From an uncultured Lentisphaeria bacterium (GTDB taxonomy: Bacteria; Verrucomicrobiota; Lentisphaeria; JABSQK01; JAJFLO01), in assembly GCA_951812855.1 (NCBI GenBank), contig OX638337.1, positions 750,001 through 782,000 on the forward strand: a stretch of DNA of 32,000 nt, in the 5' to 3' direction. This document shows, one piece after another, positions 1 to 30,105 of the stretch. The notes beneath the pieces were generated by a model. That model saw nothing but the letters and a program-made list of their open reading frames with translations. It was not told the origin of the DNA and did not search any database. The position numbers and the translations under genes are program-made. The stretch's first letter is position 1, and every line of letters starts with the position of its first letter.

Positions 1-3000
1 TTGCCGCATTTTCATTTCATCTAATTTTGGAGTTACACCACTTGAAGGAGTATTGATAATCCATTTTACATCTTTATCAGCAATAATATCTAAAATATTA
101 GGCTTTCCTTCTGAAATTTTTAGTATTGCCTGACTCTTAATATTATTTTTACTTAACAGAGTGCCGGTGCCTTTCGTTGCATATATAGAGAATCCCAGAT
201 CTATTAATCGTTTTGCCAGTGGAACGAGTAACTCTTTGTCCGAATCTCTTACACTCAAAAAGATATTACCTGATTCCGGAAGTTTATTTCCTGCAGCAAT
301 CTGGCTTTTAAAATAAGCAATTCCCTTTGAACAATCAGCACCCATTACTTCTCCAGTGGATTTCATCTCTGGAGATAAAACGATATCTGACCCTGGAAAT
401 CTTACAAAAGGAAATACGGCCTCTTTTACTGAATAATAGGATGGAACTATTTCTTTTGTATAACCCAGGTTTTTTAATCTATCCCCTGCCATTACCAATG
501 CTGCCAGCTTCGCAAGCGGTACTCCGATTGCTTTACACACAAAAGGAATTGTTCTGGATGCTCTGGGATTTACTTCAAGTATATAAACATGTTCCTCTTT
601 AACCGCAAATTGTACATTCATCAGACCGATAACATTCAATTCACGACATAAAGAGTAACAATGGCTTCGAATCGTGTCTTTTACACTTTCTGAAAGTGTC
701 GGTGCAGGAATGACACAGGCACTGTCACCAGAATGTACACCTGCAAATTCAATGTGCTCCATTATTGCACCAACGATATAGGTTTCACCATCAGAAATAC
801 AATCAACATCAACCTCAACCGCATTTTCTAAATACCGGTCAATCAGAACAGGCCGCTCCTCTGAGATTGAAACCGCTTCGTTCATATATTTCTCTAATAA
901 TTCCTCATTATACACAATGACCATTGCACGTCCACCTAAAACAAACGATGGTCGTACTAAAACAGGAAATCCAATTCGTTGAGCAATCTCTATTGCTTCC
1001 TCTGTTGTTGATGCCGTTCCATTTTCGGTTTGACTGATTCCAATTTTATCAGCTAATTTTTGGAAAAACTCCCTGTCTTCGGCAGCTTCAATACTCTTAG
1101 GGGATGTTCCCAGAATGTTCACTCCATTCTTTTCCAAATCCAGGGCCAAATTTAAAGGTGTCTGCCCCCCGAACTGCACAATTACTCCGTAACACTCTTC
1201 ATTTTCATAAATATGAAGAACATCTTCCAGGGTCAACGGTTCAAAATACAATTTATCACTTGTATCATAATCCGTACTCACGGTTTCCGGATTACTATTG
1301 ACCATAATCGTTTCAAATCCTGCGTCTCGAAGTGCAAATGATGCATGAACGCAACAATAATCAAATTCAATTCCCTGTCCTATTCGATTCGGGCCACCGC
1401 CTAAAATCATGACTTTTCTTTTATCACTAAGGCGAGACTGATCCTGATCTGCATAGGTTGAATAAAAATACGGTGTGTAAGCTTCAAATTCAGCGGCACA
1501 AGTATCAACCAGCGAATATACGGGAAATATTTTTAATGATTTTCGACATTGTCGAATCGAGTCTTCTTCAGCATTCAGGAGAAAGGCGATCTGCCGGTCT
1601 GAATAACCAAATTCTTTAGCCTGTTTTAATAGAGAATAATTATTGACTAACTCTTCCACATCTCCCACTGATGCTATTTCATCCTCAAAGAATGCCAATT
1701 CTTCCAGATGATAAAGGAACCATGGGTCAATTTTACATAGATCATGAATATGTTCAACAGTCCAGTTTCTTTTGAATCCTGCTCTTACAGCAAAAATTCT
1801 GAATGCATTCGGTCGAGATAAAAGCTTTCCAAGTTCGTTATCACTCATAGATTCAAACTCTTTATCTTTACCATCAGCACCAAAACCAAATCGCCCGATT
1901 TCAAGTGACCGCAACGCTTTCTGCAACGATTGTTTAAATGTCTTGCCAATACTCATTGTTTCTCCGACCGATTTCATTTGGGTTCCCAGTGTACTGTCTG
2001 TATCTGGAAATTTTTCAAAAGCAAATCGGGGAATCTTGGTAACAACATAATCAATAGTCGGTTCAAATGATGCCGGCGTTTCCCTGGTAATATCATTTTG
2101 AATTTCATCCAAGGTATATCCCACTGCTAATTTCGCAGCAAATTTTGCAATTGGAAATCCAGTTGCTTTAGAAGCAAGTGCACTTGATCGGGATACTCTG
2201 GGGTTCATTTCAATAACAACCATTCGTCCATTATCCGGATTAATCGCAAATTGGACATTTGAGCCTCCCGTATCCACTCCAATTTCACGCATAACCGCAA
2301 GGGAAGCATCTCTCATAATTTGATATTCTCTATCCGTTAATGTTTGAGCGGGGGCAACAGTAATGCTGTCACCAGTATGAACTCCCATTGGATCAAGATT
2401 TTCAATCGAACAAATGACAATGCAATTATCTTTTCCATCCCTCATGATTTCAAGCTCAAATTCTTTCCAGCCCAAAATACATTCTTCGATCAGAACCTCA
2501 GATATTGGGCTGCATCTCAACCCGCAGGATACAATTTCTTTAAATTCACGTTGATTATAAGCAATGCCCCCTCCAGCTCCGCCAAGAGTGAAACCCGGTC
2601 TGATAACTAAGGGAAAACCGCCAAGTTCTGCGACAACCCCTTCAGCTTCTGCTAATGTATGAACCGAATAGCTTCCAGGAACTTCCAGACCGATATTCTT
2701 CATGGCTTCTTTGAATAGTGATCGGTCTTCTGCCTTTTTAATTACATCTGGCCTGGCACCGATCATTTCGACATTAAATGATTCCAGAATCCCTTCCTGA
2801 TGAAGAGACATGGACAGATTAAGAGCAGTCTGCCCCCCGACCGTCGGTAAAATTGCATCAGGCTGTTCCTTGCGAATTATTTCGTGCAGTATGTCAAGAG
2901 ACAATGGCTCAATATAGGTAACATCAGCGAATTCTGGATCCGTCATAATCGTGGCCGGATTACTGTTAACCAGGACAATCTCGCAGCCTTCTTCCTTTAA

Positions 3001-3108
3001 GGATTTACAGGCCTGGGTTCCTGAATAGTCAAATTCACATGCCTGACCAATAATTATAGGTCCTGACCCTATTAACAGTATCTTGTGTATATCGTTTCGT
3101 TTTGGCAT
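1..3108 (-). CDS. carB: carbamoyl-phosphate synthase large subunit, partial (C-terminal ~30 aa lie beyond the left edge)
   Basis: Absent from the ORF track because no stop lies in the window. Reverse translation from ATG (3108..3106) gives [62 protein letters not shown]. The same strand at 1-400 reads ...[47 protein letters not shown]...ATKGTG (MGS-like C-terminal domain). Confidence 0.93.
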
Positions 3109-3196
3109 TGATTTATTAATTAAATTATTATTTATATCTATTTTAACTTAAAATGGTAAAGAGAAGGTCAGTTATTAAAAATCAAAAGCGACGTTT

Positions 3197-4609
3197 CTAT
3201 TCGCTGCTGCGTTCACAGGTCAATGCAGGCTTCACTGGATAATCACCCGAATAACATGCGTGACAGTAGTCCTCTGGAAGAGTATTTTTGACGCATGCAA
3301 GCATTCCTTCCAGGGAAAGATAAGCCAGACTGTCAACTCTTATTAATTTAGAGATTTCCTTAATACTATAATTATTTGCGATAAGTTCTTTTTTGCTGGG
3401 AAAATCTATTCCATAATAACACGGGCTGATATGAGGCGGTCCGCTAACCCTGAGATGAACCTCTTTGGCACCGCAGTTCAATAATGTTTTCACTCGCTCC
3501 CGACTTGTGTTTCCTCTGACGACACTATCTTCAATTAAGCAGATTTTTTTTCCTTTTATCGCTTCGTTTATTGGATTTAATTTTACTTTTACAGCAGAAA
3601 TCCGAGCCTCATGATTGGGTTGAATAAACGTCCGGCCAATATAATGATTTCTCATAATACCCATATCAAATGGTATTCCAGAAGCTTCTGCATATCCAAG
3701 AGCTGCATAAATTCCACCATCAGGTACCGGCATTACGACATCAGCATTAACAGGGGCTTCCTCAGCTAACTTCCGGCCAAATTCTTTCCTTATATGATAT
3801 ACATGTTCACCAAACACCCTGCTGTCAGGGCGGGCAAAATAAATTAATTCAAATATGCAATGTGCTTTTCTTGGTGCAAAATCAAAGTATGACGATTCTA
3901 TAGTTCCATCCTCCCGGGCAATAATAATTTCTCCCGGCTCCACGTCCCGTTCGTAAACAGCACCGATCATGTCAAACGCACTGGTCTCGGATGCAAAAAC
4001 CACAGCATCGCCCAGCTTCCCCATAGCTAAGGGACGAAACCCATACGGATCCCTTGCTGCGATCATACCTGCTTCACAGAGTGCGACAATAGAAAAAGCA
4101 CCTTCAATACTTTTTAATGCCGATTTTAAAGAATCCCACGGTTCAGTCCCTGTTTGATGATTTCTTGCAATAAGATGAAGAATAATTTCAGTATCGGTAT
4201 TCCCCTGAAGAATTGCCCCGCTTTGCTTCAATTGTTTTCGTAAAACTCCGCCATTTGAAAGATTACCATTATGTGCAAGTGATAAATTCCAGGTATCAAG
4301 TTCAACCATGAATGGCTGTGCATTAACTAATGACGACGATCCTGCAGTACTATATCGAACATGACCGATGGCCATTGATTGGGGCACATTCCACCATTCT
4401 CCTGGTAATTTTCGAAATACATCAGAGACTAATCCCATTCCTTTCTGTAATTCACATTTGCCATTGGTGTATAAACAAATTCCAGCACTCTCCTGACCGC
4501 GGTGCTGGAGTGCATATAAGCCGAGACGGGTTAATTCCGCGGCTTTTTTATGATTGGCAATTCCAAAAATACCACAATGATCTTTAATTCGACTCTCATT
4601 TTTAGACAT
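3197..4609 (-). CDS. purF: amidophosphoribosyltransferase (glutamine PRPP amidotransferase)
   Basis: 470-aa ORF. It has an N-terminal HCGIFGI Ntn-Cys motif, a PRTase-type acidic motif (ICLIEDSVVRGNT) and C-terminal cysteines typical of the Fe-S type PurF. Confidence 0.95.
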   Translation of the reverse strand: MSKNESRIKDHCGIFGIANHKKAAELTRLGLYALQHRGQESAGICLYTNGKCELQKGMGLVSDVFRKLPGEWWNVPQSMAIGHVRYSTAGSSSLVNAQPFMVELDTWNLSLAHNGNLSNGGVLRKQLKQSGAILQGNTDTEIILHLIARNHQTGTEPWDSLKSALKSIEGAFSIVALCEAGMIAARDPYGFRPLAMGKLGDAVVFASETSAFDMIGAVYERDVEPGEIIIAREDGTIESSYFDFAPRKAHCIFELIYFARPDSRVFGEHVYHIRKEFGRKLAEEAPVNADVVMPVPDGGIYAALGYAEASGIPFDMGIMRNHYIGRTFIQPNHEARISAVKVKLNPINEAIKGKKICLIEDSVVRGNTSRERVKTLLNCGAKEVHLRVSGPPHISPCYYGIDFPSKKELIANNYSIKEISKLIRVDSLAYLSLEGMLACVKNTLPEDYCHACYSGDYPVKPALTCERSSE

Positions 4610-4656
4610 AACTATAAATTGGTTTTAACATTTATTTGATTTCTTACTTATCATTG

Positions 4657-6282
4657 TTATTTCTGAAATTGTTTGGCAGCCTTAATAAATGATGCAAATA
4701 ATGGATGGGCATTTAACGGGGTTGATTGAAATTCAGGGTGAAACTGACAGGCAACAAACCAGGGATGATCTTTTATTTCAATAATTTCAACAAGATTATT
4801 GTCTGGTGATGTTCCTGAAAAGATTAATCCATTTTGTTCCATTTTACTTTTATAGTCATTATTGAATTCAAACCGATGCCGATGCCGTTCTGATATTTTG
4901 TCCTTCCCATATGCCGCATAAGAATGCGTATTCTTTTGAAGAGTACATGGATAAGCACCTAATCTCATCGTACCGCCTTTATTTTTTACACTCTCTTGCT
5001 TTTCCATTAAATGAACGACAGGATACTTCGTCGTTTTCTTAAACTCTTTGCTGTTTGCACTGGACAAATTACAAACGTTTCTGGCAAATTCTATGACAGC
5101 ACATTGCATTCCCAGGCATATACCGAAATATGGAATCGCATTTTCTCTGGCAAACCGCACCGCATTAATCTTTCCCTCTATTCCACGATCTCCAAAACCA
5201 CCCGGGACCAATATACCATCAACTCCCCCAAGTAAATTCTCTGCACCCTGATCTTCAATGTTTTCAGCTTCGACATGCCGAATTTTAACTTTAACGGAAT
5301 TTGCAATCCCGCCATGAATCAAGGCTTCATAAATGCTTTTATATGCATCCATAAGACTAATATATTTACCGATAACCGCAATCTCAATTTCACCATTCTC
5401 CGGGTTGATGTGAGATGCAACCATTTTTTTCCAATCCTCAATATCCAAAGAACAAACATGGAGATTCAACAATTCCAAAATGTATGTATCTAAATCTTGT
5501 TTTGCCAATTCTAAAGGAACTTCGTAAATGCTATGCTCTACATCTTGTTCTTCAAACACAAGTTCTCTACCTACATTGCAGAATAAAGCAAGTTTTTCCT
5601 TATGTTCTTTTGTGATTTTATGATCTGCTCGGCAAATCAATAAATCTGGTGTTATACCGATTTCCCTGAGTATACCGACAGATTGCTGAGATGGTTTTGT
5701 TTTTAGCTCACCGGCTGCCTTAATATAGGGAACCAGAGTCAAATGAATGAAAATGCCATTATCTCGTCCAATTTCATGCCGCATCTGACGAATAGCTTCC
5801 AGAAACGGTAATGATTCAATGTCCCCTGCGGTCCCCCCGATTTCTATAATCGCTATATCAGTTTCATCATCGGCGGTCAAAGAATTTATGCACTTCTTGA
5901 TCTCATCGGTTATATGCGGGATGACCTGAACTGTTTTACCAAGATATCCCCCTTCTCGTTCACGAGCGATTACAGAACGGTAAATTCTACCGGTTGTATA
6001 GTTACTTTCCAGTTGGCATGCAATATCGGTAAACCGTTCATAATGTCCCAAATCAAGATCCGTTTCAGCACCGTCTGCGGTCACATATACTTCTCCATGC
6101 TGATAGGGGGACATTGTCCCCGGATCAACATTGAGATACGGATCAAGTTTCTGCATGCGAACTCTGTAGCCTCTTCGAGACAATAAAAGAGCAATCGAAG
6201 CCGTTGTGATTCCTTTACCCAGGGATGAAACAACACCCCCGGTAACAAAGATATATTTAACGTGTGATTTTTTTCTGTGCAT
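4657..6282 (-). CDS. pyrG: CTP synthase
   Basis: 541-aa ORF with [15 protein letters not shown] near the N-terminus and a C-terminal GATase domain ([15 protein letters not shown]). Confidence 0.96.
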
Positions 6283-6283
6283 A

Positions 6284-6823
6284 TCAGCGAATAATCTTTA
6301 AGATTTTCTTAAAATCTTCCCCCCCGGCAATTCCCGACAATTCAAATAATATCATTTCTGTTGTCGTCAACTTTATGCCTTCCTGCATCATGCGCTTAAT
6401 TGCGAATTCCCGGTTTGAGTCTTTCCTTGCCGAAATGGCATCGGCAACGAGATGGACACCGTAACCATTTTTCATAAGGTCTATTGCAGATTGATATACA
6501 CATACATGGGCTTCAATCCCTGCGAGGATAATATTCTTATAGTTACCTGAATTTATTTCGTTTATGAAAGCAGGCTCTTTCCAGCAACTGAAACTGTGTT
6601 TTGAAATCGATGTTGCATTATGCAGCCCCGTCGTAATATCAGCAACTGTTCTGCCTAGTTTTTCTGGATATTGCTCAGTTAAAATTATTGGCATTTTTAA
6701 TGCTGTTATTCCACTTAGGAGACGACCCAGATTATCAATTAACGCCTGCTGTCGGCTCATTGCTGTAATCAATCTCTCCTGAACATCAACAATTACCAAA
6801 ACTGAATTATTTTTTGTCAGCAT
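6284..6823 (-). CDS. isochorismatase-family hydrolase
   Basis: 179-aa ORF with VLVIVDVQ near the N-terminus and a GIEAHVCV catalytic-Cys region. Its stop lies 1 nt from the pyrG start, so it is probably co-transcribed with pyrG-purF-carB. Confidence 0.85.
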
Positions 6824-7190
6824 CTGAATATGTAAAAAGTTAAGGATAGCCTGAAGTTTATAATTGTAAAGTTACAACCCCGGAGAAATAAAAATGTCTA
6901 AAACATATACTCATGAAAATAAAAGAGGAGAACACAAGGTATAATAAATAATATTTGTGAAAATTGTAACTGTACTGGACGGTCATAAATATTTTCACTT
7001 CTCTTGCTTTTTTTGCCAATATTTTTCCCAATAATTGTAAGAAACGCTGTTATCCTGACGTAATTGTTTCTGGAAACAATTCGTTACATAATACTATTTT
7101 AATCAGGGGAGCTTCAGCAGTGTATCGAGTCATCTTAATATAATTTGAGTATTTTCCCATAACTTTTTAACTAAAAACAGAGCTGAATTA

Positions 7191-7897
7191 ATGTATACCC
7201 TTTCAGACAGCATAGGGTTTTACATGAAAGATATTGGAAACATTCCCCTGGTCAATACTCAAGAAGAAGTTGAGTTGGCGACTTCAATCCGCGATGGATC
7301 TGAAGAGGCTGGACTTAGGTTAATTATATCTAATTTGAGATTAGCAGTAAAGATTGCACATGATTTTAAGAGTCTGGGCTTGCCTCCGGAAGATTTAATT
7401 TATGAAGGAAATATCGGACTTATGAGAACCGTCGAAGAGTTCGATCCACAAAAAGGTGCCAAATTCAGCAACTGTACAGTTTGGTGGATAAAGCAAGCAA
7501 TGCGACGCACCCTTCTCGAAAAAGTAAGCCCGTCGGTATACCGGTTACTTCCGCTGGCAAAATTAATACGATAAAGTCAATCCGATCTCGGTTAACGAGT
7601 AAACCTGGCAGAGATCCAACAGACAAAGAAATCGCCTGCCAACCGGCTCTAAGTGTTCGGGTTTTTTCCAGATTAAAACGTGCTGATTTAAAACCGTTTC
7701 ATTACAAAATCCAATGACAGAGGATAAAGAAGGATGGTTCTCCGACGAAGACATTAGAAGATGTAAGCAAAACCATCGGCCGGACTCGTGAGCACGTTCG
7801 ACAGATTCAAAACAAGGCCCTTCAAAAAATGAAAAATCTGATCAATAGTGATTGTGCAGTTGAAAAACTAAATACTAAAAAGTCAATACTTAACTAA
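7191..7897 (+). pseudogene. sigma-70 family sigma factor, decayed (three frame changes, region 3.2-4.1 deleted)
   Basis: Region 2 (FSNCTVWWIKQAMRR) is in frame 0 up to ~7520. Region 3 (SKPVGIPVTSAGKINTIKSIRSRLTSKPGRDPTDKEIA) is in frame 2. TVSLQNPMTEDKEGWFSDEDI is in frame 1. Region 4.2 (TLEDVSKTIGRTREHVRQIQNKALQKMKN) is back in frame 2 and ends at TAA 7895-7897. Confidence 0.8.
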
Positions 7898-8041
7898 AAC
7901 AGCACCCTGGTCCTGAAAAATCACCTTATTTATGGATTATTTTGTGTGAATTTGATCCTTATATAATTATCTTATGCTTGATATAGTTCCAAACAGGATC
8001 ATAGAGCAATAGGAAAAAGGATTGCAATATCAGAAAATATT

Positions 8042-8593
8042 TTATCTCTGCTTACTGCCTGTTATTTCATCATCAAGAAACACTCGACTGCCGACCGTTT
8101 TATCCTGCTTTTGATATTTCCCTCGGTAGGGTGACTTGGTTTCTTGATCCATTTTGCAAAAAACCAGCTGACAGACCCGCCGACCTGACTGCAGCTTGAT
8201 AGGCAGTGAATTTGCATTATAAAGCTCCAAGGTTATATACCCCTCAAAACCCGGATCAACCCAACCCGCATTCTGGATAAAAAGACCAATCCTGCCAATT
8301 GAACTGCGGCCTTCAACAAAGGCAGTTAAAAAATTCGGCAATTTTATATATTCATGAGTCGTTGCCAGTAAAAAAGAATGTGGAGGAATTATTATGGAAT
8401 CACTTTCAATATCTCGATATTTTATTTCACTGTCTAACGTCAGACAATCCATCGAATTATCTTCTATTACCAGATAATGAGTACCCAATCGACAGTCAAT
8501 TGATGCCGGCTGAATCGAATTCTCTCCGATTGGGCCAACAGTCAATTCACCACTGGCAATAAGTTGTTTTAATGTACTGTCCGAAAGTATCAT
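8042..8593 (-). CDS. dcd: dCTP deaminase
   Basis: 183-aa ORF starting MILSDSTLKQLIASGEL, with GRSSIGRIGLFIQNAGWVDPGFEGYITLEL typical of Dcd. Confidence 0.93.
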   Translation of the reverse strand: MILSDSTLKQLIASGELTVGPIGENSIQPASIDCRLGTHYLVIEDNSMDCLTLDSEIKYRDIESDSIIIPPHSFLLATTHEYIKLPNFLTAFVEGRSSIGRIGLFIQNAGWVDPGFEGYITLELYNANSLPIKLQSGRRVCQLVFCKMDQETKSPYRGKYQKQDKTVGSRVFLDDEITGSKQR

Positions 8594-8650
8594 CAGTATT
8601 TGATTCTCCTGTTAATTTAAGTCGGGCATTAAGGGAATTAACTCAGCGGC

Positions 8651-9175
8651 TTAATTGAATGATATGATCCCGGATAGAAACCAATGACTCTTCACAATTA
8701 CAGGAATATGATTTAGAAAATCAATTGTACTGCTGTCTGGTTCCAACCCAATAATATTGCCTGCTTCAATTTGGAAAATACTTATACCTTCCTTTTTGCA
8801 TTTCCCATTGAGCAACTGTGCCGTCAAGTCGCCAACCTGAATCAATGCCGCTAAATGAAGTCCCAATCCATTTTCGTCATTCCCGGTAATATCAGACAAA
8901 TGATGATTAAATGCAATACATTGATGAATTTCAATGGTCAAATTCCATGATGTTGCAATTAAACCTCCAACCCTTTCGTGAAATGAAGAAAAAAGACCCG
9001 ATAGAGAGTCTTTTGTTATTTCCTGATCATCATTTATCTTGTTTTGACATGAGACTGTCAGCTCTCTTAAAATTGCCAATTTCCCGATATCATGAAGCAG
9101 ACCGGCCATATAAGCATTATCTGGATTCGGATAATAACATTGACTCAGCCCGCATGTTGGAGCACCGATTGTAAT
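8651..9175 (-). pseudogene. HDOD-domain protein remnant (N-terminal ~90-100 aa of the domain missing)
   Basis: The ORF contains AGLLHDIGKLAIL plus the distal HDOD helices. The frame stays open upstream of the ATG at 9109 (ITIGAPTCGLSQCYYPNPDNAY) only as far as an in-frame TAA at ~9176-9178. Beyond that is AT-rich non-coding DNA. Confidence 0.6.
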
Positions 9176-9393
9176 TTAAGATTTTTGATCCTTTGTAGAA
9201 TTTATTGATGTTATTTTTCTTTTCCGGAATCAAATCACGTCTTTTTTTCATTATTTTTACACACTCCCCTTACCCCCAATCGGTTTGTATAATATGTTTT
9301 TATTTGAAATCTGTTATTTATAACACATTATATCTCGTTTTAATCGTAACATTTTTATTCTATGAGGTAGAAACGTTCTCTTAGTTATCATGG

Positions 9394-9597
9394 ATGTTTA
9401 TGTCAATTGTAATTCCAGTTGTTGAAAGGGTTTTTGCATCAAGAGATAAGAACGATTTAATGATTGGCCGCAGAAGAGTTTCTATATTTGATTTACACGA
9501 TGACGAGCTGGCACACTTTAATAAAAATACGGGAGAATTAGAAATTAGCCAATATGTTCGTAGCAAATTGGCAGAATTGAAGGAAGCCAGACTTTGA
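9394..9597 (+). CDS. small ribbon-helix-helix (CopG/MobC-like) protein, putative; real start may be the internal Met at 9460
   Basis: RRRVSIFDLHDDELAHFNKNTGELEISQYVRSKLAEL fits a beta-strand/helix/helix RHH pattern. No convincing SD precedes 9394. Confidence 0.4.
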   Translation: MFMSIVIPVVERVFASRDKNDLMIGRRRVSIFDLHDDELAHFNKNTGELEISQYVRSKLAELKEARL

Positions 9598-9814
9598 ATA
9601 TGGTGAAAAAATAACGGAAGACTCAAAAAAAAACTAAAACCTTTCTTGAGAACAAAAATATACTGTGAGAACAGATTTGTTTTATATAATGACGATTGGA
9701 TAACCACAGATGAACTCAAAAAAAAAAATTCAGTTAATGCCGGCCGAACAAAATCGTCTTGACGCTGAGCAGCAAGAGACTGAACAAAACCCATTAATAA
9801 GGAAGAAGAATCCG

Positions 9815-10042
9815 ATGATGATCAAGCAGCACTCTGGGATTGGTGATTTGCCGATTTCGAAGGAACTCTTAGATATATTAGCATGCCCTGCCTGTGATGA
9901 AAAGCCTCCGGTTACATTATCCGAAGACCTTCAGTTTCTCATATGTAGTAAATGTGCTAAAAAGTATCCTGTCAAAAATGGTATTCCAGTTATGTTGGTG
10001 GAGGAAGCCGTAGATGCTGTCCATACCCGGAGGATACTCTAG
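9815..10042 (+). CDS. Trm112/YcaR-family small zinc-ribbon protein (UPF0434)
   Basis: LLDILACPACDEKP...LICSKCAKKYPVKNGIPVMLVEEA. The track ORF starts at 9710, but the family is ~60-75 aa, so the ATG-ATG at 9815 is the likelier start. The stop TAG abuts the ATG of the next gene. Confidence 0.8.
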   Translation: MMIKQHSGIGDLPISKELLDILACPACDEKPPVTLSEDLQFLICSKCAKKYPVKNGIPVMLVEEAVDAVHTRRIL

Positions 10043-11955
10043 ATGTGCGGGATTGTCGGAGGATTTTGGAACAAGGTCCGGAAAGAAGAGATTGATGCCC
10101 GCCTGCGATCAAGCCTGACATCTCTCAGGCACCGCGGTCCGAACGACAGCGGTCATAAGGTCGTCCGTAATGCGGCACAGACAGTTGCACTTGGCCAAAC
10201 TCGCTTGTCTATCATCGATCTCAGCTCCGATGGACACCAACCCATGGTGAGTAACGATGGGTGCCTTATGCTGGTCTTCAATGGCGAAATTTACAACTAC
10301 AAGGAGCTGCGCAGCGAGCTTCGCACCAGGGGGCATACATTCCGTTCCGAGTCCGACACAGAGGTGCTTCTCGCAGCATACGCCGAGTGGGGAAGGGAGT
10401 GCCTGACGCGGTTGGTCGGCATGTTCGCCTTCGTCGTATACGACCGGTCGTCGGTCGTCGGTCGTCGGTCGTCGGTCGGCTGTTTTGTGCCCGTGATGCC
10501 TTTGGCATCAAGCCGTTTTTCTATGAATGGAACGATAACGGTTTTCTTTTTGCATCGGAGCAATCAGCACTGCGCGTATTGCGGAACAGGCCGTTTGAGC
10601 CCGATCTGCAACGCAGTTACGACTATCTGGTACACGGCGATTACGACAGTCAGGAACGCAGTTTTCTGAAAGGGGTGAAACATTTGCCTCCCGGCTCGTT
10701 TCTTGAAGTCGATGTAACCTCGAAAAATCGATCCAGGCCAACAACATGGTGGCGAGTGCCAACCGCGGAAACAAAACTCTCCTTTCCTGATGCAGCTGCA
10801 GCATTGCGGGAGCAATTCTTGTCCAGTATCAATTTCCACCTTCGCAGTGATGTTCCGGTTGGAATGGCTCTTTCCGGAGGGATCGATTCGTCGGCAATTG
10901 TTTGTGCTGTCCGACACCTGGCACCTGACATACCAATCCATACATTCAGTTATATCGCCGACGACAGTCGGCTTTCAGAGGAGAAATGGGTCGATCTGGT
11001 AAATGAAAAAGTCCGTGCCATACCCCATAAAGTGAGGGTGACCGGGGACGATTTGATGCGCGACCTGGATCGACTGATTGCCATTCAGGGAGAGCCATTC
11101 GGCAGTACGAGCATTTATGCGCAGCATCGTATTTATCAATTGGCAAAAGAGAATGGCATCACGGTGACTTTGGATGGTCAGGGTGCCGACGAGCTTCTCG
11201 CAGGCTATAGTGGATATCCTGGTCAGCGCCTCCTTAGCTTGTTTGAGAGTCGACGCTTCCTTGCCATGCATCGGTTCGCACGGAGTTGGGCTGCTTGGCC
11301 GAACAGGTCATACTGGCAGGCCTTCATGTACCTCGGGAAGGTTGTCTTTCCAGATTCGATCTATCGGTATGCTCGCAAGTCCCTGGGACGGGATTTTGAA
11401 CCGGCCTGGCTTAAGACAAACCTCCTGCGGGAGGCTGGCGTCGAGTTTCGCGAAGCACGAATGCCGTTTCGGCGTGATTACAGACAAAGGCGAGTGATCG
11501 AGCAACTCGCCCACAGCTTGCAGATTCGCGGGCTGCCACATCTCCTTCGGCAGGGTGATCGCAACTCGATGGCGTTTTCGATTGAAAGCCGCGTCCCCTT
11601 TCTGACCGCACAAATGGCTGAGCTTTTATTGTCATTGCCTGAGCATTACCTGATTGCAGAATCCGGAGAGACAAAAAGCGTATTCAGAGCGGCAATGCGC
11701 GGCATCGTGCCGGACGCAATCCTTAACCGTAGAGACAAGATTGGTCTGGCCACACCTGAGCGTGAGTGGTTCTTGCAGGGAGGTCAGGGGATGCGCAAGT
11801 GGTTTAGGGACGGGGACTCAATACCATTCATCAATCGCAATGAATTAGCGGCTGCATTCGATGCCATACTGGATGGCAAAGTGCCTTTCAGCTGGCAAGC
11901 GTGGCGGTGGGTAAACTACATTCGATGGTATGGGGCACAGGGCTTCAATGGTTAG
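10043..11955 (+). pseudogene. asparagine synthase (glutamine-hydrolysing), polysaccharide-cluster type, split by a frameshift inside a 7-nt repeat
   Basis: The N-terminal part is MCGIVGG...RLSIIDLS...FNGEIYNY...SDTEVLL...GMFAFVVYD (frame of 10043). It continues as LFCARDAFGIKPFFY...MALSGGIDSS... to 11955 in the frame of 10261. The switch lies at 10446-10480. Confidence 0.85.
10446..10480 (+). repeat. tandem heptanucleotide repeat: (GGTCGTC) x4 perfect plus GGTCGGC
   Basis: Counted base by base. The perfect units are 10446-52, 10453-59, 10460-66 and 10467-73, and the degenerate unit is 10474-80. Confidence 0.95.
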
Positions 11956-11956
11956 G

Positions 11957-12603
11957 ATGACCAACACATTGCACATATCTAATACGGACATTGAGTTCGA
12001 TAGTCGCATATGTAAGTAATTGAAGGTGCTCAGCGAGCTGTCCACATCTCGTACCTGGCACTGATGATGAAAGAAGCCGATTTGAGACCCCTGGTTGTCC
12101 ATATAGATGCCGGCTACACCGAGCTTGCCGTTCACAACATTGGGCAGATTGTAAGGCACTGCGGCTATGAGCTGGTTACTCATGTGATAGACCGGGAAGA
12201 GGTTCGCGACCTACAGCTTGCTTTCGTTCGCTCAGAAATTGCGAATCAGGACGTTGTGCAGGATCACGCTTTTTTTTGCGACCTTATATCATTTTGCTGT
12301 TGAAAATAATATCCAATACGTGATCAGTGGTCGAAACACGGCAACAGAATGTATTAAGACCCAAACATCGGAGCACTCCGCGATGGATGCAATTAACCTG
12401 CGTGCCATCTACAAGAAGTTTGGCAATATTCCACTCAAGCATTACAAAACCATTTCCTTTTTTCAATACTATTTCTATTATCCCTTCATCAAGAAGATGG
12501 CTACAGTCAAGTCTCTCAACTATACGCCCTATGATAAACCTGCCGAACCGGAAAGACTGAAACAGGAGATCGGCTACAAGGATTACGGTCAAAAACACGG
12601 CGG
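11957..12603 (+). pseudogene. N-acetyl sugar amidotransferase (WbpG-like PP-loop enzyme) remnant, copy A
   Basis: MTNTLHISNTDIEFDSRICK then a stop. Next comes VIEGAQRAVHISYLALMMKEADLRPLVVHIDAGY, a degenerate SGGxDS PP-loop. REEVRDLQLAF...QDHAFF is followed by a frameshift at T8 (12270-12277), then ATLYHFAVENNIQYVISGRNTATEC...YYPFIKK...GYKDYGQKHGGS. The 3' end is missing. Confidence 0.75.
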
Positions 12604-12864
12604 ATCCAGGAACTTGTTGAAGCAATGGCTCTGCTTGATAACACACGGTTGAATCTTGTTGGCAGATTCAATGATGAAGAATTCGAAGCACGCATCAGGT
12701 TGTCTGCAGGCTGGAGTAAGGTAAATGAACTTGGATTCGTTAAGCGTAATGATGTAGCAGACGTGCCTGGACGTTCGAGGGCGGGTATTGTCACCTATTA
12801 CCCGGTGCCCAATTACATGGAGGCTCAACCGAACAAGTTGTTTGAGTACATGAGTGCCGGATTG
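12604..12864 (+). pseudogene. glycosyltransferase family 1 (GT4-type) C-terminal fragment
   Basis: IQELVEAMALLDNTRLNLVGRF...VNELGFVKRNDVADV...RAGIVTYYPVPNYMEAQPNKLFEYMSAGL matches the GT1 C-terminal Rossmann/EX7E region. No N-terminal half is present. Confidence 0.65.
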
Positions 12865-13194
12865 CTTGATGGTCTGACGATTACGAAACCCCTTGGCTAC
12901 CTGGATACCATGATGCTGATGAAAAATGCCTCCGCTGTTGCGACCGATTCCGGTGGTATTCAGAAAGAAGCATATTTCCATCAGGTCCCCTGCATCACAC
13001 TACGCGATGAGACTGAATGGTCTGAACTTGTGGAACTTGGCTGGAACCGCCTTTGTTCGCCGTTACTGGGGGACGGCCAGATCGTAAATTGTGTTACCCA
13101 AAGCATTGGACGCCATGGTAAATCAGGCACTCCATATGGTGGAGGCGATGCTGCTGTCAAGATTATTGACCATCTGTTGAGTCGATTTAACTGA
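12865..13194 (+). pseudogene. UDP-N-acetylglucosamine 2-epimerase (WecB-like) C-terminal fragment, fused in frame to the GT1 fragment
   Basis: KPLGYLDTMMLMKNASAVATDSGGIQKEAYFHQVPCITLRDETEWSELVELGWNRL...YGGGDAAVKIIDHL is the conserved WecB C-terminus. The first ~250 aa are absent. Confidence 0.7.
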
Positions 13195-13214
13195 TGTTGT
13201 AATAGGGGTGGTTA

Positions 13215-13794
13215 TCCTGCAAACACTATCAACACAAACTCGGCGTGAGCTTCAAGCGATTGCCCTGCCGGGAAAGGTGCGAGCGGTTTACTTGATGCTG
13301 CACAGCCTGGGTTCATCCCGAAAACAAAGCGACGTCGCCCTGTACCCCCGGCGTCGGAACCCATTCAGGAGAATGCCTGCAAGATGATCACTCTGTGAGG
13401 TGCGAAGTGAAGCATGTCCTGACACTGTTTTTTTTGATGCCTGGCAATACGGATGGTTTATTACCCGTTCATTATCAGGATGCGGAGCCACCGTCCGCTG
13501 GAATGGGTCGATTACAACAAGGCCGATGTAAAGAAACTTCTGATGCAAGAATTGGGCTGGTGCGATTATGGTAACAAGCATTATGAATCTGCTTTCACCA
13601 AGTTTCTCCGGGCTTATTACCTGCCCGAGAAATTTGGCTATGACAAGCGGCTGGCTCATCTTTCAAGCCTTGTGGTTTCTGGCCAAATGACCAAGGCCGA
13701 AGTGCAAGCCGAGCTGCAATTGCTGATCTATGACCTGCAAGAGCTGAAAGAAGATCGCATCTACTGGATCAAAAAGATGGGCCTTACTCAGTAA
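13215..13794 (+). pseudogene. N-acetyl sugar amidotransferase remnant, copy B (diverged from copy A)
   Basis: The intact C-terminal ORF 13453-13794 reads YYPFIIRMRS...ELGWCDYGNKHYESAFTKFLRAYYLPEKFGYDKRLAHLSSLVVSGQMTKAEV. Upstream there is only weak multi-frame similarity (RRELQAIAL; GVGTHSGEC; KHVLTLFF), with a T8 run at ~13431-13438. Confidence 0.65.
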
Positions 13795-13941
13795 GAGTAT
13801 GATGAGGTGACGGCCGCAAAAGAGAAAGTTACACCCCCCCTATAAGTGGAGGCAGTGGCGTTTCTATTATCTTCTCCATGCATAGTTAATGGGTAAAAAG
13901 CTGACTTATTAGAAAAAAATTTAATTTTCTTACAATTTTGT

Positions 13942-14026: not shown

Positions 14027-14479
14027 TTGAATATTAGTTTTTTAGGTTGGTTTACACATTCAATTGATTCACAACGCAGAGTTGCAATTCCGAGAGAGTG
14101 GCGATTCAAAAGTGATAGCCAGGACTCAGTATTTTACTTAATGCCCGGGAGGGATGAGAGTATCCAAATCTTACCTCAGGAGCTATTCGAAGCTGAAATT
14201 TTGGCAAAGATTAGCAAAGTGCCCGTTACTAATGCTGCAAGGATGCGTGCAATCGCACAGATCGGTGCAAAAACAAGCAAGAGTCAATGCGATAAACAGG
14301 GACGAATTACACTGACCCCATACCTCATGGAATATTCGGGATTACAGGATCAGACAGTTTTAATCGGTGGTTTCTCCAGTATTCAGGCCATGTCCCCTGA
14401 GCGTTGGGAAAAAGCAGAAATGAGTTATGATGATATGCTCGATCAAATTGAAAGAATTCAAGAGAGTAGAGAAATTTAA
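14027..14479 (+). CDS. mraZ: transcriptional regulator MraZ
   Basis: 150-aa ORF with a TTG start 6 nt after GGAGGA. It has two SpoVT/AbrB-like halves (DSQRRVAIPREWRF; DKQGRITLTPYLMEY) and heads the dcw cluster. Confidence 0.9.
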   Translation: MNISFLGWFTHSIDSQRRVAIPREWRFKSDSQDSVFYLMPGRDESIQILPQELFEAEILAKISKVPVTNAARMRAIAQIGAKTSKSQCDKQGRITLTPYLMEYSGLQDQTVLIGGFSSIQAMSPERWEKAEMSYDDMLDQIERIQESREI

Positions 14480-17716: not shown

Positions 17717-19203
17717 AACGTATTAAAACACTTAGAGATTACCTTAGTTCCTGCAATGGTCTTGAAGATGATCTTGAAGGCAATCCTGATATCCCGATTA
17801 CACACCTGACAAATGACTCAAGAAATGTAGAACCGGGGTCCCTATATGTTGCAATCCGGGGATCTACCCTGAATGGACAGGAATTTATAGGTCAGGCAAT
17901 ATCTCGCGGTGCGTCAGCAATAGCCTATGCTTCTGATAAAAAACTATCTTTGCAGATACCCTCCTTTCGTGTAAAAAATGATTATTCAGCTTTTGCCAGA
18001 ATGGCTGAATTCCACCTTGATTATCCAAGCAAAAATCTAAAACTCATTGGCGTTACCGGTACGAATGGGAAAACAACCACGACAACACTGATAAGACATT
18101 TATTAAATGATACACACTATAATGTTGGTTTGATAGGTACGATTAGCTATCAATACAACGATATATCAATTAAGGCATCCCGCACAACTCCGCCGGCACT
18201 GGAGTTGCAAAAATTGATCAGAACCATGAAAGATGCTGGTATAAATCTGATTATTATGGAAGTATCCAGCCATGCACTGAATCAATACCGCCTCGGTTCA
18301 ATGAAATTTGACATGGCAGTATTTACTAATTTATCAGAGGAACATTTAGACTGTCACAAAACAATGGACGGCTATTTCAGTGTTAAAAAGAAACTATTCA
18401 TTGATCACATTAAAAAAAATGGAAAGACAGTGATTAATATTGATGATAGTTATGGTAAGAAGTTATGTGGTCAACTAATTGGTACTGAGCAAATAACATA
18501 CGGATATTCCACGGCGTCACAAAATAGAATCATATCGATTAAATCGACACTGAAAGACAGTATAATAAAAATAATAACACCAAACGGGAATATATTCTCA
18601 ACGTGTTCACTGATTGGAAAATATAACAGTTATAATATCGCTGCTGCTGTATTGGTTGCATTGAATTTAAAACTGTCAACAGATCATGTCATCGATAGAT
18701 TGAGTCAATTTTATGAAGTTTCAGGACGATTACAAAGATTAACAACAAGCGATAAAATCAATATTTTTATTGACTACGCTCATACAGAAGATGCATTAGA
18801 AAATGTATTGCAAACACTTAAACGACTTTGCAGAAATAATAAATTAATCGTAGTTTTTGGATGCGGTGGTAACAGGGATAAAACTAAACGTGCAAAAATG
18901 GGTAAGGTTGTTTCAGAATATGCCGATAAAATCTATATTACCAATGATAATCCCCGCAACGAAGATCCCCACCAAATTATTAGCCAAATAGTTGGAGGGT
19001 TACCATCAAAAACTAACTGTGAAATCATTGCAGATCGTAAAAATGCCATTGAAAGTGCCATCAAAAATGCAACCCTGAATGATACAATAATCATTGCCGG
19101 TAAGGGTCACGAAGAGTATCAGGAGTTTGGCAATAAAAAAATCCATTTTAGCGATACTGAAGTTGCCCTAAATGCAGTGAAAAGTTTTGGATTATCAGGT
19201 TAG
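17701..19203 (+). CDS. murE: UDP-N-acetylmuramoyl-L-alanyl-D-glutamate--2,6-diaminopimelate ligase; start codon unresolved
   Basis: The track ORF starts at TTG 17950. The same frame is open back to 17698 and encodes genuine MurE N-terminal sequence (ITHLTNDSRNVEPGSLYVAIRGSTLNGQEFI). Also present are GVTGTNGKTTT and DNPR. No ATG/GTG/TTG lies in frame upstream; the candidate start is ATT at 17701. Confidence 0.85.
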   Translation: MSNKVERIKTLRDYLSSCNGLEDDLEGNPDIPITHLTNDSRNVEPGSLYVAIRGSTLNGQEFIGQAISRGASAIAYASDKKLSLQIPSFRVKNDYSAFARMAEFHLDYPSKNLKLIGVTGTNGKTTTTTLIRHLLNDTHYNVGLIGTISYQYNDISIKASRTTPPALELQKLIRTMKDAGINLIIMEVSSHALNQYRLGSMKFDMAVFTNLSEEHLDCHKTMDGYFSVKKKLFIDHIKKNGKTVINIDDSYGKKLCGQLIGTEQITYGYSTASQNRIISIKSTLKDSIIKIITPNGNIFSTCSLIGKYNSYNIAAAVLVALNLKLSTDHVIDRLSQFYEVSGRLQRLTTSDKINIFIDYAHTEDALENVLQTLKRLCRNNKLIVVFGCGGNRDKTKRAKMGKVVSEYADKIYITNDNPRNEDPHQIISQIVGGLPSKTNCEIIADRKNAIESAIKNATLNDTIIIAGKGHEEYQEFGNKKIHFSDTEVALNAVKSFGLSG

Positions 19204-19945: not shown

Positions 19946-20821
19946 TTGAAAATAATGTGTGACACCAAATCATTTGAGAAACTCTATCCATTTAAGTCGC
20001 ATTACTTAGATATCAATGGATTAAACTATCATTATTTGGATGAAGGAAACGGTCCTGTTATCGTCATGCTTCACGGAAATCCAACCTGGTCATTTTACTA
20101 TCGGAATTTAGTCGTAGCCCTTCGCAAAAATTATCGCGTAATCGTGCCGGATCATATCGGTTGCGGCTTTTCAGACAAACCACAGGATTACCCCTATCAA
20201 CTTAATAATCATGTTGATAATCTAAAAACGTTGTTAACGCATCTGAATATAGAAAAACTAACTATGTTTGTACACGATTGGGGTGGCCCAATTGGACTGG
20301 GTTATGCTGTGGACAATCCTGAAAAGATTGAAAAGATGGTTGTTTTCAATTCATCACCATCTTTAACAAAAAAATTTCCATTTTTAATTCTCCTGTGCCG
20401 AATTCCTTTATTAGGAAATTTAATGGTTCGAGGTATGAACTATTTTGCTGTCGCAGCAACGTATCTGGCATGCAAAAAAAGAGAAAAAATGACACCGGAA
20501 GTCAAAGCAGGATACCTTAAACCCTATGATAGTTATGAGAATCGTATCGCAACCCTGCGTTTTGTCGAGGATATCCCGTTCACGAAAAAACATCCGACCT
20601 GGAGTACAGCTGAATCTATCCAGTCTAAACTATCTGTGATCGAGAATAAACCCATGCTCATCTGTTGGGGCATGCAAGATTTTTGTTTTACAGAGCATTT
20701 TCTCCATCTTTTTCAAGAACGATTCTCAAACGCGACCGTTCATAAATTTGATGATGCCGGACATTACATCGTTGAAGATGCTATCGACCAAATATTGCCG
20801 TTGGTAAAAGATTTTTTGTAA
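19946..20821 (+). CDS. alpha/beta-fold hydrolase, haloalkane-dehalogenase-like subfamily
   Basis: VMLHGNPTWSFYYRNL, the nucleophile elbow HDWGGPIGLGYA and a C-terminal DDAGHYIVED. The ATG at 19955 is a likelier start than the TTG at 19946. Confidence 0.85.
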   Translation: MKIMCDTKSFEKLYPFKSHYLDINGLNYHYLDEGNGPVIVMLHGNPTWSFYYRNLVVALRKNYRVIVPDHIGCGFSDKPQDYPYQLNNHVDNLKTLLTHLNIEKLTMFVHDWGGPIGLGYAVDNPEKIEKMVVFNSSPSLTKKFPFLILLCRIPLLGNLMVRGMNYFAVAATYLACKKREKMTPEVKAGYLKPYDSYENRIATLRFVEDIPFTKKHPTWSTAESIQSKLSVIENKPMLICWGMQDFCFTEHFLHLFQERFSNATVHKFDDAGHYIVEDAIDQILPLVKDFL

Positions 20822-29115: not shown

Positions 29116-30105
29116 TTACTTTAACAAATCTTCTACAACTTCCCGCTCATCAACCAGCTCACATGTCGTTTTTTCAATTTTTTCAGAAAGATAATCATCC
29201 ATCTCAAAACCCGGAACAATTTCGACACCGCCTGCAGTTGTATTTCGGCAGGGGAATGAAAAAATCAGCCCTTCAGGAACACCGTATGGATTACCATCAC
29301 TGATTACCGCAGAACTGTAAACTTCGTCCGTATTATCAGATACAATAGATTTAACCGCATCAACAGCTGCGGATGCTGCGGATGCTGCGGACGATTTTCC
29401 TCTGGCACTAATAATTGCTGCACCGCGTTTTGCAACAACATTAATAAATTCTCCCTGCAAGTAGTCAAGATCATTAACCACATCTACCGCACTGCGGCCA
29501 CTGACAGTCACATTTTTGTAGTCCGGGACCTGATTGGCTGAATGATTACCCCAAATGATCATATTTTTTATATCGCTGACATCAGTATTCGTCTTCTCTG
29601 CAAGCTGATTTACTGCTCTATTCTGATCAAGACGAGTCATTGCGTGAAATCGGTTTCTCGGAATATCAGGTGCATTGTGCATCGTGATCAAACAATTTGT
29701 ATTACATGGATTTCCCACAGTCAAAATGCGTACATCGGAGGAAGCGTAATTGTTGATTGCCTTCCCTGTACTGGTAAAAATTGGACCATTTTCTTTGATC
29801 AAATCGGCTCGTTCCATTCCGGGACCCCGGGGCTTCGAACCCACCAGCAATGCCCAGTTTACATCTTTCATTACCGTATTAACGTCGTCGGTCAAGACAA
29901 TATCTTTAAGGAGAGGAAATGCACAATCATCAAGTTCCATTGCCACCCCTTCAAGTGCCCCCATGGCAACGGGAAGTTCGAGTATATTAATTGCAACAGG
30001 TTGCTCAGGACCAAACATTGCCCCGGATGCGATTCTAAATAATAAGCTGTAACATATTTGTCCTGCACCACCAGTAACGGCGACTCGTATTGTAGAACCA
30101 GCCAT
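29116..30105 (-). CDS. mdh: malate dehydrogenase (329-aa, LDH-unlike 'cytosolic/Thermus' type)
   Basis: [50 protein letters not shown] and [10 protein letters not shown]. Confidence 0.94.

Follow-up and report, generated by a model that had tools for sequence, protein, structure and literature searches.

The question raised by this locus is whether a short tandem repeat that breaks the reading frame of an asnB-like gene is a phase-variation switch or the lesion that silenced the gene. The locus lies in a 32,000-nucleotide stretch of contig OX638337.1 from an uncultured Lentisphaeria bacterium, referred to here at its full length as the window; the gene occupies positions 10043-11955, and the repeat, a heptanucleotide array, falls within its glutaminase-coding part. 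The array is very probably a genuine slipped-strand repeat and, mechanically, a reversible translational ON/OFF element whose two known alleles each lie one unit from ON (four to five units, nine to eight). As to its role, the reading favored here, with a probability of roughly 0.55, is that of a young variable-repeat lesion in an orphaned gene, the tract now drifting as a neutral variable-number repeat.

The array sets the reading frame of the asnB-like gene

The elements of the interrupted gene are as follows.

10445-10479, forward strand: heptanucleotide simple repeat, four units of CGGTCGT (10445-10472) and a degenerate terminal unit CGGTCGG (10473-10479) (Tandem Repeats Finder, unit count)
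10029-10045, forward strand: Shine-Dalgarno sequence GGAGGA (10029-10034) and ATG start codon (10043-10045) (read from the sequence)
10043-10444, forward strand: 5' part of the asnB-like gene, frame A, codons 1-134, encoding the nucleophile Cys2 and the initial two thirds of the GATase_7 (glutaminase) domain (open reading frame list, Pfam/NCBIfam, alignment)
10480-11955, forward strand: 3' part of the asnB-like gene, frame B, with the remaining glutaminase domain and the Asn_synthase domain with its SGGIDSS pyrophosphate-binding loop (open reading frame list, PF00733)

Tandem Repeats Finder reports the array at 10445-10478 with a period of 7, 4.9 copies, 100% matches and a score of 68. Shifted in register by one base, the identical array reads as four units of GGTCGTC plus GGTCGGC at 10446-10480; this is how the initial annotation had described it, placing it exactly at the frame break, and both the repeat finder and the list of open reading frames (ORFs) bear this out. 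The ORF at 10043-10669 (208 residues) ends with GMFAFVVYD followed by repeat-encoded residues, and the ORF at 10261-11955, which contains LFCARDAFGIKPFFY, is in another frame. The array lies inside a coding sequence; contingency loci carry their simple repeats there or in the promoter. Its 28-base core occurred 0.00 times in 100 dinucleotide-preserving shuffles, and no other simple repeat in the 32 kb reaches three perfect copies of a 2-9-base unit.

Since 7 is not a multiple of 3, the number of units determines the frame. The asnB-like gene is 1913 bases long, that is, 2 modulo 3. When it was rebuilt with zero to eight perfect units (k), an uninterrupted ORF was obtained only at k = 2, 5 and 8 (632, 639 and 646 residues), and every other k led to an early stop; the in-frame series for the full enzyme of 632 or more residues continues as k = 2, 5, 8, 11 and so on. 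The rebuilt alleles agree with the earlier arithmetic, by which gaining one unit or losing two rejoins the halves, and the junction peptide at k = 2 is YD-RSSVVGR-LFCARD, as had been proposed. The repeat itself contains no stop codon in any of its frames. One practical consequence is that annotation pipelines will mis-call the gene, which is now split into odd ORFs with products of 458 and 564 residues; a protein identical to the product of the 3' ORF (10261-11955) is in the public collection as P0121.

The number of units differs between two coexisting strains

Two products of this gene (P0008 and P0121) are in the public collection; they come from closed contigs of 1,941,460 bp (L001) and 1,947,381 bp. 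The window was compared with the sister locus L001 over window positions 622-21940 (21.3 kb); 57 substitutions and four indels separate the two, corresponding to 99.7% identity (about 0.27-0.3% of sites differ). L001 carries nine perfect units where the window carries four, the difference being a 35-base whole-unit indel at 10444 with identical flanks. A comparison of repeat number in related strains had been suggested at the outset, and this single, nearly identical genome already supplies a different allele. The nine-unit allele is also out of frame: its length is 1 modulo 3, that of the four-unit allele 2 modulo 3, so that the frame is disrupted in both.

In intact host genes the strains differ by 21 synonymous and 8 nonsynonymous substitutions (pS 0.71%, pN 0.075%), and because of this synonymous excess the strain differences represent real divergence rather than sequencing error. 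An alternate contig (L040, ena:ERZ18545485:atg001969l) from the same ENA sample as L001 (ptg000035c) is 100% identical to window positions 1-8676 and ends before the repeat; four-unit and nine-unit strains therefore coexist in one sample. Within the island of about 3.8 kb that contains the gene, the strains differ by only six substitutions (0.16%). Five unit steps against six substitutions in the island indicate a mutation rate at the repeat that exceeds point substitution by orders of magnitude, and the tract is hypermutable. Homopolymers of A9 to A11 nearby have the same length in both strains; these are an A11 tract (9718-9728) and an A9 tract (9625-9633), which lie either just ahead of the Trm112-like ORF or at its 5' end.

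Slipped-strand mispairing is favored as the mechanism because it is the sole process that explains perfect whole-unit differences. The three other strain indels, at 7844, 8799 and 20820, are also tandem duplications or slippage products. Those at 7844 and 8799 are, in that order, one versus two copies of ATAGTG and an AT dinucleotide step within the HDOD pseudogene; the one at 20820 duplicates 15 bases imperfectly (AAAAGATTTTTTGTC) at the 3' terminus of an alpha/beta-hydrolase gene (19946-20821). As all four strain indels are of this type, slippage-type mutation appears to be general in the lineage.

No in-frame allele was found: both of the two genomes are OFF. Searches of genome_contigs and metagenome_contigs for the exact sequences flanking the repeat, to its left and to its right, yielded no further alleles, a protein search with the N-terminal 141 residues returned nothing above 67% identity, and a full-length protein search recovered the same-species products P0008 and P0121 only; nothing else, genome or fragment, reached 90% identity.

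The array occupies a turn of invariant length

At the site of the array, homologues carry the codons GAC CGG TCG CGC GGC AGA ATC (D-R-S-R-G-R-I) and no repeat. The initial annotation had counted homologues free of a repeat here among the findings that would speak against a switch, and on this point the evidence went against the switch. It had also described the site as a linker that homologues fill with a short variable Arg-rich stretch. The sequence of this five-residue turn (DR-x-R-x-R) does vary, but its length does not, being the same in 119 of 119 full-length homologues. The AsnB-family structures 7ylz and 1ct9, both matched by the repaired protein, have the ancestral turn length, and each leaves a two-residue gap opposite the k = 2 repair. 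An AlphaFold model (predicted local distance difference test score, pLDDT, 78.6; predicted template modelling score, pTM, 0.83) places residues 135-140 in a tight beta-hairpin turn between strands 126-134 and 141-146. The in-frame alleles would thus lengthen an otherwise never-lengthened turn by 2, 9, 16 or 23 residues.

The ancestral length is not restorable by whole-unit changes. As the ancestral 15 bases cannot be reached from 7k + 7, the origin of the array probably involved a 1-base indel and with it an OFF intermediate. The 5' edge of the array offers a candidate starting point:

10440-10451, unstranded: perfect 12-base palindrome ACGACCGGTCGT, formed by the upstream flank and the first unit (read from the sequence)

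The palindrome core GACCGGTC and two GGTCG motifs are present in the homologous, ancestral codons that lack the repeat, and the palindrome may have seeded the first duplication.

A structural role of the array in RNA was considered and rejected: stem-loops of the RNA hairpin or intrinsic terminator kind were flagged in the repeat, followed by TGTTTTGTG, but there were fewer such sites than in shuffled sequence. RNA and DNA folds of the four-unit and nine-unit alleles were likewise no better than those of shuffled sequence (z = -0.1 to -0.7, coding strand).

The gene belongs to the AsnB family and its relatives lie in polysaccharide clusters

From its domains, the gene is assigned to the AsnB-type glutamine-hydrolysing asparagine synthase family (PF13537 + PF00733), with a class II glutaminase and a synthetase domain. 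The repaired protein begins with MCG, contains LSGGIDSS and is recognized by the Pfam models GATase_7 (152.6 bits) and Asn_synthase (207 bits), the latter (PF00733) spanning residues 250-624; the reading frame closes with TAG at 11953-11955. It passes the cut-off of the generic asparagine synthase model TIGR01536 (418.7 bits, cut-off 267.1) and does not reach that of TIGR03108 (eps_aminotran_1, WbpS/WbqG type; 342 bits, cut-off 816.9). Cys2, the glutamine-site motifs RLSIID, NGE and SDTE, and the SGGIDSS loop all occupy alignment columns that show no variation among 20 relatives.

The best homologues share 74-82% identity, have a GC content of 60-64% and lie within O-antigen or exopolysaccharide clusters. 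In intact clusters the gene stands between a Wzx flippase gene, together with that of an unannotated 460-residue protein, and a GT4 glycosyltransferase gene with which the end of asnB has an 8-base overlap; a Bac_transf initiating transferase follows farther along, and the order with the GT4 overlap was seen in L002, L003, L004 and L006. Upstream of the window ATG, similarity to the homologues is absent. In these clusters, AsnB homologues of the WbpS/WbqG type turn uronic acids into uronamides, as shown or proposed (PMC7468200). In one further homologous locus (L005, ena:ERZ25039485:contig_22268, homologue P0002), the neighbors are mostly split into two or three pieces (PGI in three, GATase in two, Wzz/GNVR), which looks like the result of indel errors in a noisy long-read assembly; the asnB homologue there is intact.

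The island around the gene has decayed

The surroundings of the gene comprise the following features.

10043-13850, unstranded: horizontally acquired GC-rich island between the trm112-like gene and mraZ (composition profiles; synteny of the related genome L007 from mraZ onward)
9710-10042, forward strand: host Trm112-like gene (Pfam PF03966; both strain substitutions synonymous)
11948-12043, forward strand: GT4 glycosyltransferase remnant; some 30 codons are left, interrupted in frame by a TAA at 12017-12019, and the rest is deleted (comparison with L002)
12064-13794, forward strand: polysaccharide-gene fragments, a "graveyard" (NCBIfam hits all partial and far below curated cut-offs; Pfam)
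12064-12303, 12218-12652 and 13453-13794, forward strand: WbuX pieces (profile positions 81-154; 147-269, in another frame; and 227-336)
within 12625-13194, forward strand: C-terminal piece of wecB, last ~110 residues (profile positions 256-363 of 366; Pfam Epimerase_2, positions 233-346 only)

The GC content of the island is 53%, falling to 46%, against about 38% in the flanks; the host genome, a member of the Planctomycetes-Verrucomicrobia-Chlamydiae (PVC) group, has about 1.94 Mb and 38% GC. The named relatives of its PyrG belong to the Verrucomicrobiota, Lentisphaerae and Kiritimatiellae. On its left the island begins where the asnB-like ATG follows the TAG of the Trm112-like gene without a gap, and the two genes are probably co-transcribed. 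The GT4 remnant reads MVRMTNTLHISNTDIEFDSRICK, a stop and LKVLSELS in the window, against MSDVLHISHTDIEFDSRIRKELKALSQLPEV in L002. Judged from their sequences, the GT4, WbuX and wecB genes survive as fragments, and every other gene of the island is dead; a functional surface-polysaccharide cluster accompanies the homologues, whereas the window holds fragments only.

Decay extends into host genes beyond the island. The host-side reference was the closest species representative, the related metagenome-assembled genome "Verrucomicrobia bacterium OFTM167" (L007 and L041), whose PyrG is 90% identical. Relative to L041, the HDOD/HD gene (8684-9172, reverse strand) is a pseudogene in which residues 192-354 of 354 are left, and the sigma-70 gene (7224-7894, forward strand) is frameshifted and eroded: its residues 1-103 are 81% identical, whereas identity over 100-273, which is aligned with gaps, is only 51%. 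OFTM167 is syntenic from mraZ onward (L007) and on the pyrG side up to the HDOD gene (L041), with no asnB-like gene at either edge. Strain substitutions are densest near the host pseudogenes, at about 1% across 7574-8042 and 8594-9709.

The island, dead fragments included, is under-diverged between the strains: 0.16% of its sites differ, against 0.71% at host synonymous sites and about 1% in flanking non-coding and pseudogene DNA. The low divergence points to a shared ancestor of 10043-13900 that is more recent, for example through recombination between the co-occurring strains or a sweep. Beyond the right edge, mraZ (14027-14479; partial Pfam match) holds 6 of the 57 strain substitutions, four of them nonsynonymous (W8C, A60E, A71E, Y134D), so that this one gene accounts for half of the nonsynonymous changes seen across 13.6 kb of host genes; relaxed or diversifying selection could underlie this pattern.

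Other observations concern the wider window. A replication origin beside the island was considered because of a cumulative GC-skew minimum at about 9 kb and rejected: DnaA-box matches are at chance level, 11 against 10.35 expected, with none at 9.1-9.7 kb, and the skew change coincides with a switch in gene orientation. For murE, homology to L007 runs about 75 codons upstream of the first ATG, GTG or TTG, in a frame open from about 17725 (17725-17950), and the same holds in L007; probably MurE starts at a non-canonical codon or its annotation (400-417 residues) is too short. The malate/lactate dehydrogenase gene (29116-30105, reverse strand) contains a perfect in-frame 9-base repeat, GCTGCGGAT, of 2.9 copies at 29366-29391, beyond the part of the window that aligns to L001.

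Lesion or switch

Under the favored reading, a hypermutable heptanucleotide microsatellite would have arisen inside codons 135-140 of a horizontally acquired AsnB-family amidotransferase gene. Slipped-strand mispairing at replication would add or remove whole 7-base units, and at any k outside the series 2, 5, 8, 11 and so on, translation would stop after a truncated glutaminase domain, giving a product of 208 residues at k = 4 and a stop 8 codons past the repeat at k = 9; both strains are OFF. The repeat would be the lesion that switched the gene off after its pathway had been lost. We prefer decay because the GT4 partner and the WbuX, wecB, HDOD and sigma-70 genes are all broken. Return to an in-frame allele is mechanically one unit away, and selection is probably not maintaining it. 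If this is correct, the locus offers a snapshot of microsatellite birth from an Arg/Ser/Gly-rich palindromic codon stretch, the repeat being the first and fastest-evolving hit in a gene lost during genome reduction, and a strain marker with no regulatory biology.

Several observations weigh against this reading. Apart from the repeat, the gene shows neither the multiple lesions nor the relaxed constraint of a pseudogene. There is no second stop or frameshift in its 632 codons in the window strain or the sister strain, which settles, in favor of an intact remainder, a point that the initial annotation had marked for checking. The ratio of nonsynonymous to synonymous substitution rates (dN/dS) between the window gene and three homologues is 0.08-0.12, compared with 0.09-0.16 among intact homologues, and a three-taxon decomposition by arithmetic from the pairwise values gives dN of about 0.09, dS of about 0.9 and an omega of about 0.1 for the window's own branch. 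In a leave-one-out test the window protein differs at 1 of 229 otherwise invariant positions (H499Q), and intact relatives differ at 0-9. The GC content at first, second and third codon positions is 0.588, 0.442 and 0.575 in the window gene, 0.63-0.65, 0.45-0.46 and 0.71-0.81 in the homologues, and 0.29-0.43 at third positions of host genes; provided that the donor was similar to the known homologues, this fall focused at third positions suggests long upkeep of the protein under selection in a low-GC host. Deletions took both neighbors and spared the gene to within a few bases, leaving the Shine-Dalgarno sequence and the stop-start junction: the left island edge is within a few bases of the ATG, and the right-hand deletion begins about 90 bases past the stop. 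Between the strains the gene has accumulated no nonsynonymous and two synonymous changes, where about 3 (island-remnant rate) or about 10 (host synonymous rate) nonsynonymous changes are expected; the test is significant only with the host synonymous rate (0.71%) as the neutral baseline, the island-remnant baseline (4 in 1945 bases) giving P of about 0.05. A perfect nine-unit heptamer array is, moreover, unusual for neutral bacterial DNA, and the two OFF alleles are uninformative, because two thirds OFF is the null expectation and an OFF/OFF pair has a probability of 4/9 under either model. These data show past purifying selection and are evidence that the gene was functional until recently; by our own estimate, its intactness only limits the time since inactivation to under roughly 3% neutral divergence.

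The same observations are what a maintained contingency locus would leave, and such a locus is the principal alternative, which we hold only tentatively. The amidotransferase would still be useful, for example in amidating a surface uronic-acid sugar made elsewhere, ON alleles would carry (RSSVVGR)n loop extensions as in NeuO, and the assemblies would have caught majority-OFF populations. Constraint on the gene, third-position-confined GC loss, the retained start region and the silent changes between strains all fit this alternative, as do the five-unit change between co-occurring strains that differ at 0.27% of sites, a stop-free repeat that falls in a hairpin turn outside the strands, the length and perfection of an array that stands alone in 32 kb, and a gene class and horizontal origin shared with known cases (NeuO, PglE). 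Formally, the locus has what contingency loci have: a simple repeat in a coding sequence, a non-triplet unit that toggles the product, and a unit number that varies between close strains (4 versus 9). Against maintenance, an ON allele was seen in neither strain; the GT4 partner and other island genes are dead, and no substrate pathway is visible; and the turn is invariant in length in 119 homologues and in distant structures, so that insertions of 2-23 residues may not be tolerated. The repeat is also mid-domain, at codon 135 of 632, whereas most contingency genes carry theirs near the 5' end; the genome is visibly losing genes in the region; and no second simple-repeat locus accompanies it in the window. 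As to a functional ON state, the gene is intact, with conserved motifs and a dN/dS of about 0.1, but the ON alleles would lengthen an invariant turn and the partner genes are dead. A working switch in the full sense, a heptanucleotide in the glutaminase turn of an orphaned AsnB enzyme whose ON alleles vary a surface loop in (RSSVVGR) steps, is doubtful on this evidence. Were it real, heptad phase variation as known from NeuO would reach a new enzyme family, a mid-domain position and a non-pathogen lineage, and co-occurring strains of a genome-reduced PVC-group bacterium would carry different states. Few simple-repeat contingency loci have been documented beyond cultured pathogens adapted to a host, and this would be one of them; it would also show a 7-base repeat tolerated within a catalytic domain, and provide a handle on surface-glycan variation and strain coexistence. 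Of the two outcomes that the initial annotation had offered, a switch or simply a lesion, the lesion is at least as likely, and use as a switch is not supported.

Two further explanations carry little weight even when combined. It is very improbable that errors of sequencing or assembly produced the repeat or the difference in its length. The data are consensus assemblies, and the name ptg000035c suggests a metagenome long-read assembly with collapsed mixed populations; however, arrays of 35-70 bases are easily spanned by single reads, both assemblies show perfect whole-unit arrays with identical flanks, and the nearby homopolymers agree between them. The synonymous excess of 21:8 and the third contig, identical to the window over 8.7 kb, likewise attest to real divergence. 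A full-length enzyme produced despite the break, by programmed ribosomal frameshifting or transcriptional slippage, or a functional split enzyme, is less probable still. Ribosomes can pass a repeat that is stop-free in every frame, but a slippery X XXY YYZ site or a homopolymer is absent, local RNA folds are no better than shuffles (z = -0.3 to -0.7), and the two strains would need opposite corrections, their lengths being 2 and 1 modulo 3. The break cuts through the middle of the glutaminase beta-sandwich and lies at no domain boundary, and the 134-residue N-terminal piece is therefore an incomplete domain. On these grounds we rejected all three of these mechanisms.

Comparison with known systems

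The initial annotation had likened the locus to slipped-strand phase-variable surface-polysaccharide genes. In architecture the likeness to NeuO and PglE is sound; contingency use is what the absent ON allele, the dead partners and the invariant turn fail to support. NeuO, the K1-capsule O-acetyltransferase of the Escherichia coli CUS-3 prophage, carries an AAGACTC repeat of 3-53 units and is OFF in 65.6% of 64 genomes (PMC13001214). As here, a heptanucleotide repeat lies in the coding sequence of a horizontally acquired surface-polysaccharide enzyme, the product is full length for one class of unit number modulo 3, the number shifts by strand slippage, and three units add one heptad. In NeuO, however, the repeat is in the 5' region and encodes an N-terminal tail that tolerates, and even gains from, more units, whereas CGGTCGT stands at codon 135 in a length-invariant turn of another enzyme family, in dead surroundings and with both alleles OFF.

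PglE, a pilin glycosylation glycosyltransferase of Neisseria meningitidis, has a heptanucleotide repeat within its ORF whose unit number is strain-variable (PMC7157529), and heptanucleotide repeats are also known from Haemophilus influenzae, including an internal hmw1A repeat in strain PittAA and an HI1369 homologue (PMC2651432). There, too, strains differ in unit number, and in some of them the ORF is cut short; the hmw1A repeat is likewise mid-ORF. Those species differ in having many such loci, and their carriage isolates have provided documented cases of ON/OFF switching; the present host, uncultured and of the PVC group, shows one locus in 32 kb, with two alleles that are both OFF. With WbpS and WbqG the gene shares the two-domain AsnB architecture and the N-terminal Cys nucleophile, and its homologues sit in clusters with Wzx, GT4 and Bac_transf genes; the window protein differs in falling below the TIGR03108 cut-off, being named only as a generic asparagine synthase, and in that its own cluster is destroyed.

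At the other end of the comparison are the neutral variable-number tandem repeats in pseudogenes of reducing genomes, such as the typing loci of Mycobacterium leprae or Coxiella. The array resembles them as a perfect short-unit array that varies by several units between near-identical strains in a pseudogene-rich genome, with other small tandem-duplication indels alongside; it differs from neutral repeats in old pseudogenes in that the gene is intact apart from the repeat and shows strong past purifying selection. The locus is best classed with the heptanucleotide phase-variable genes, as a new but unproven member of that known group, or else as an ordinary variable-repeat pseudogene caught very early.

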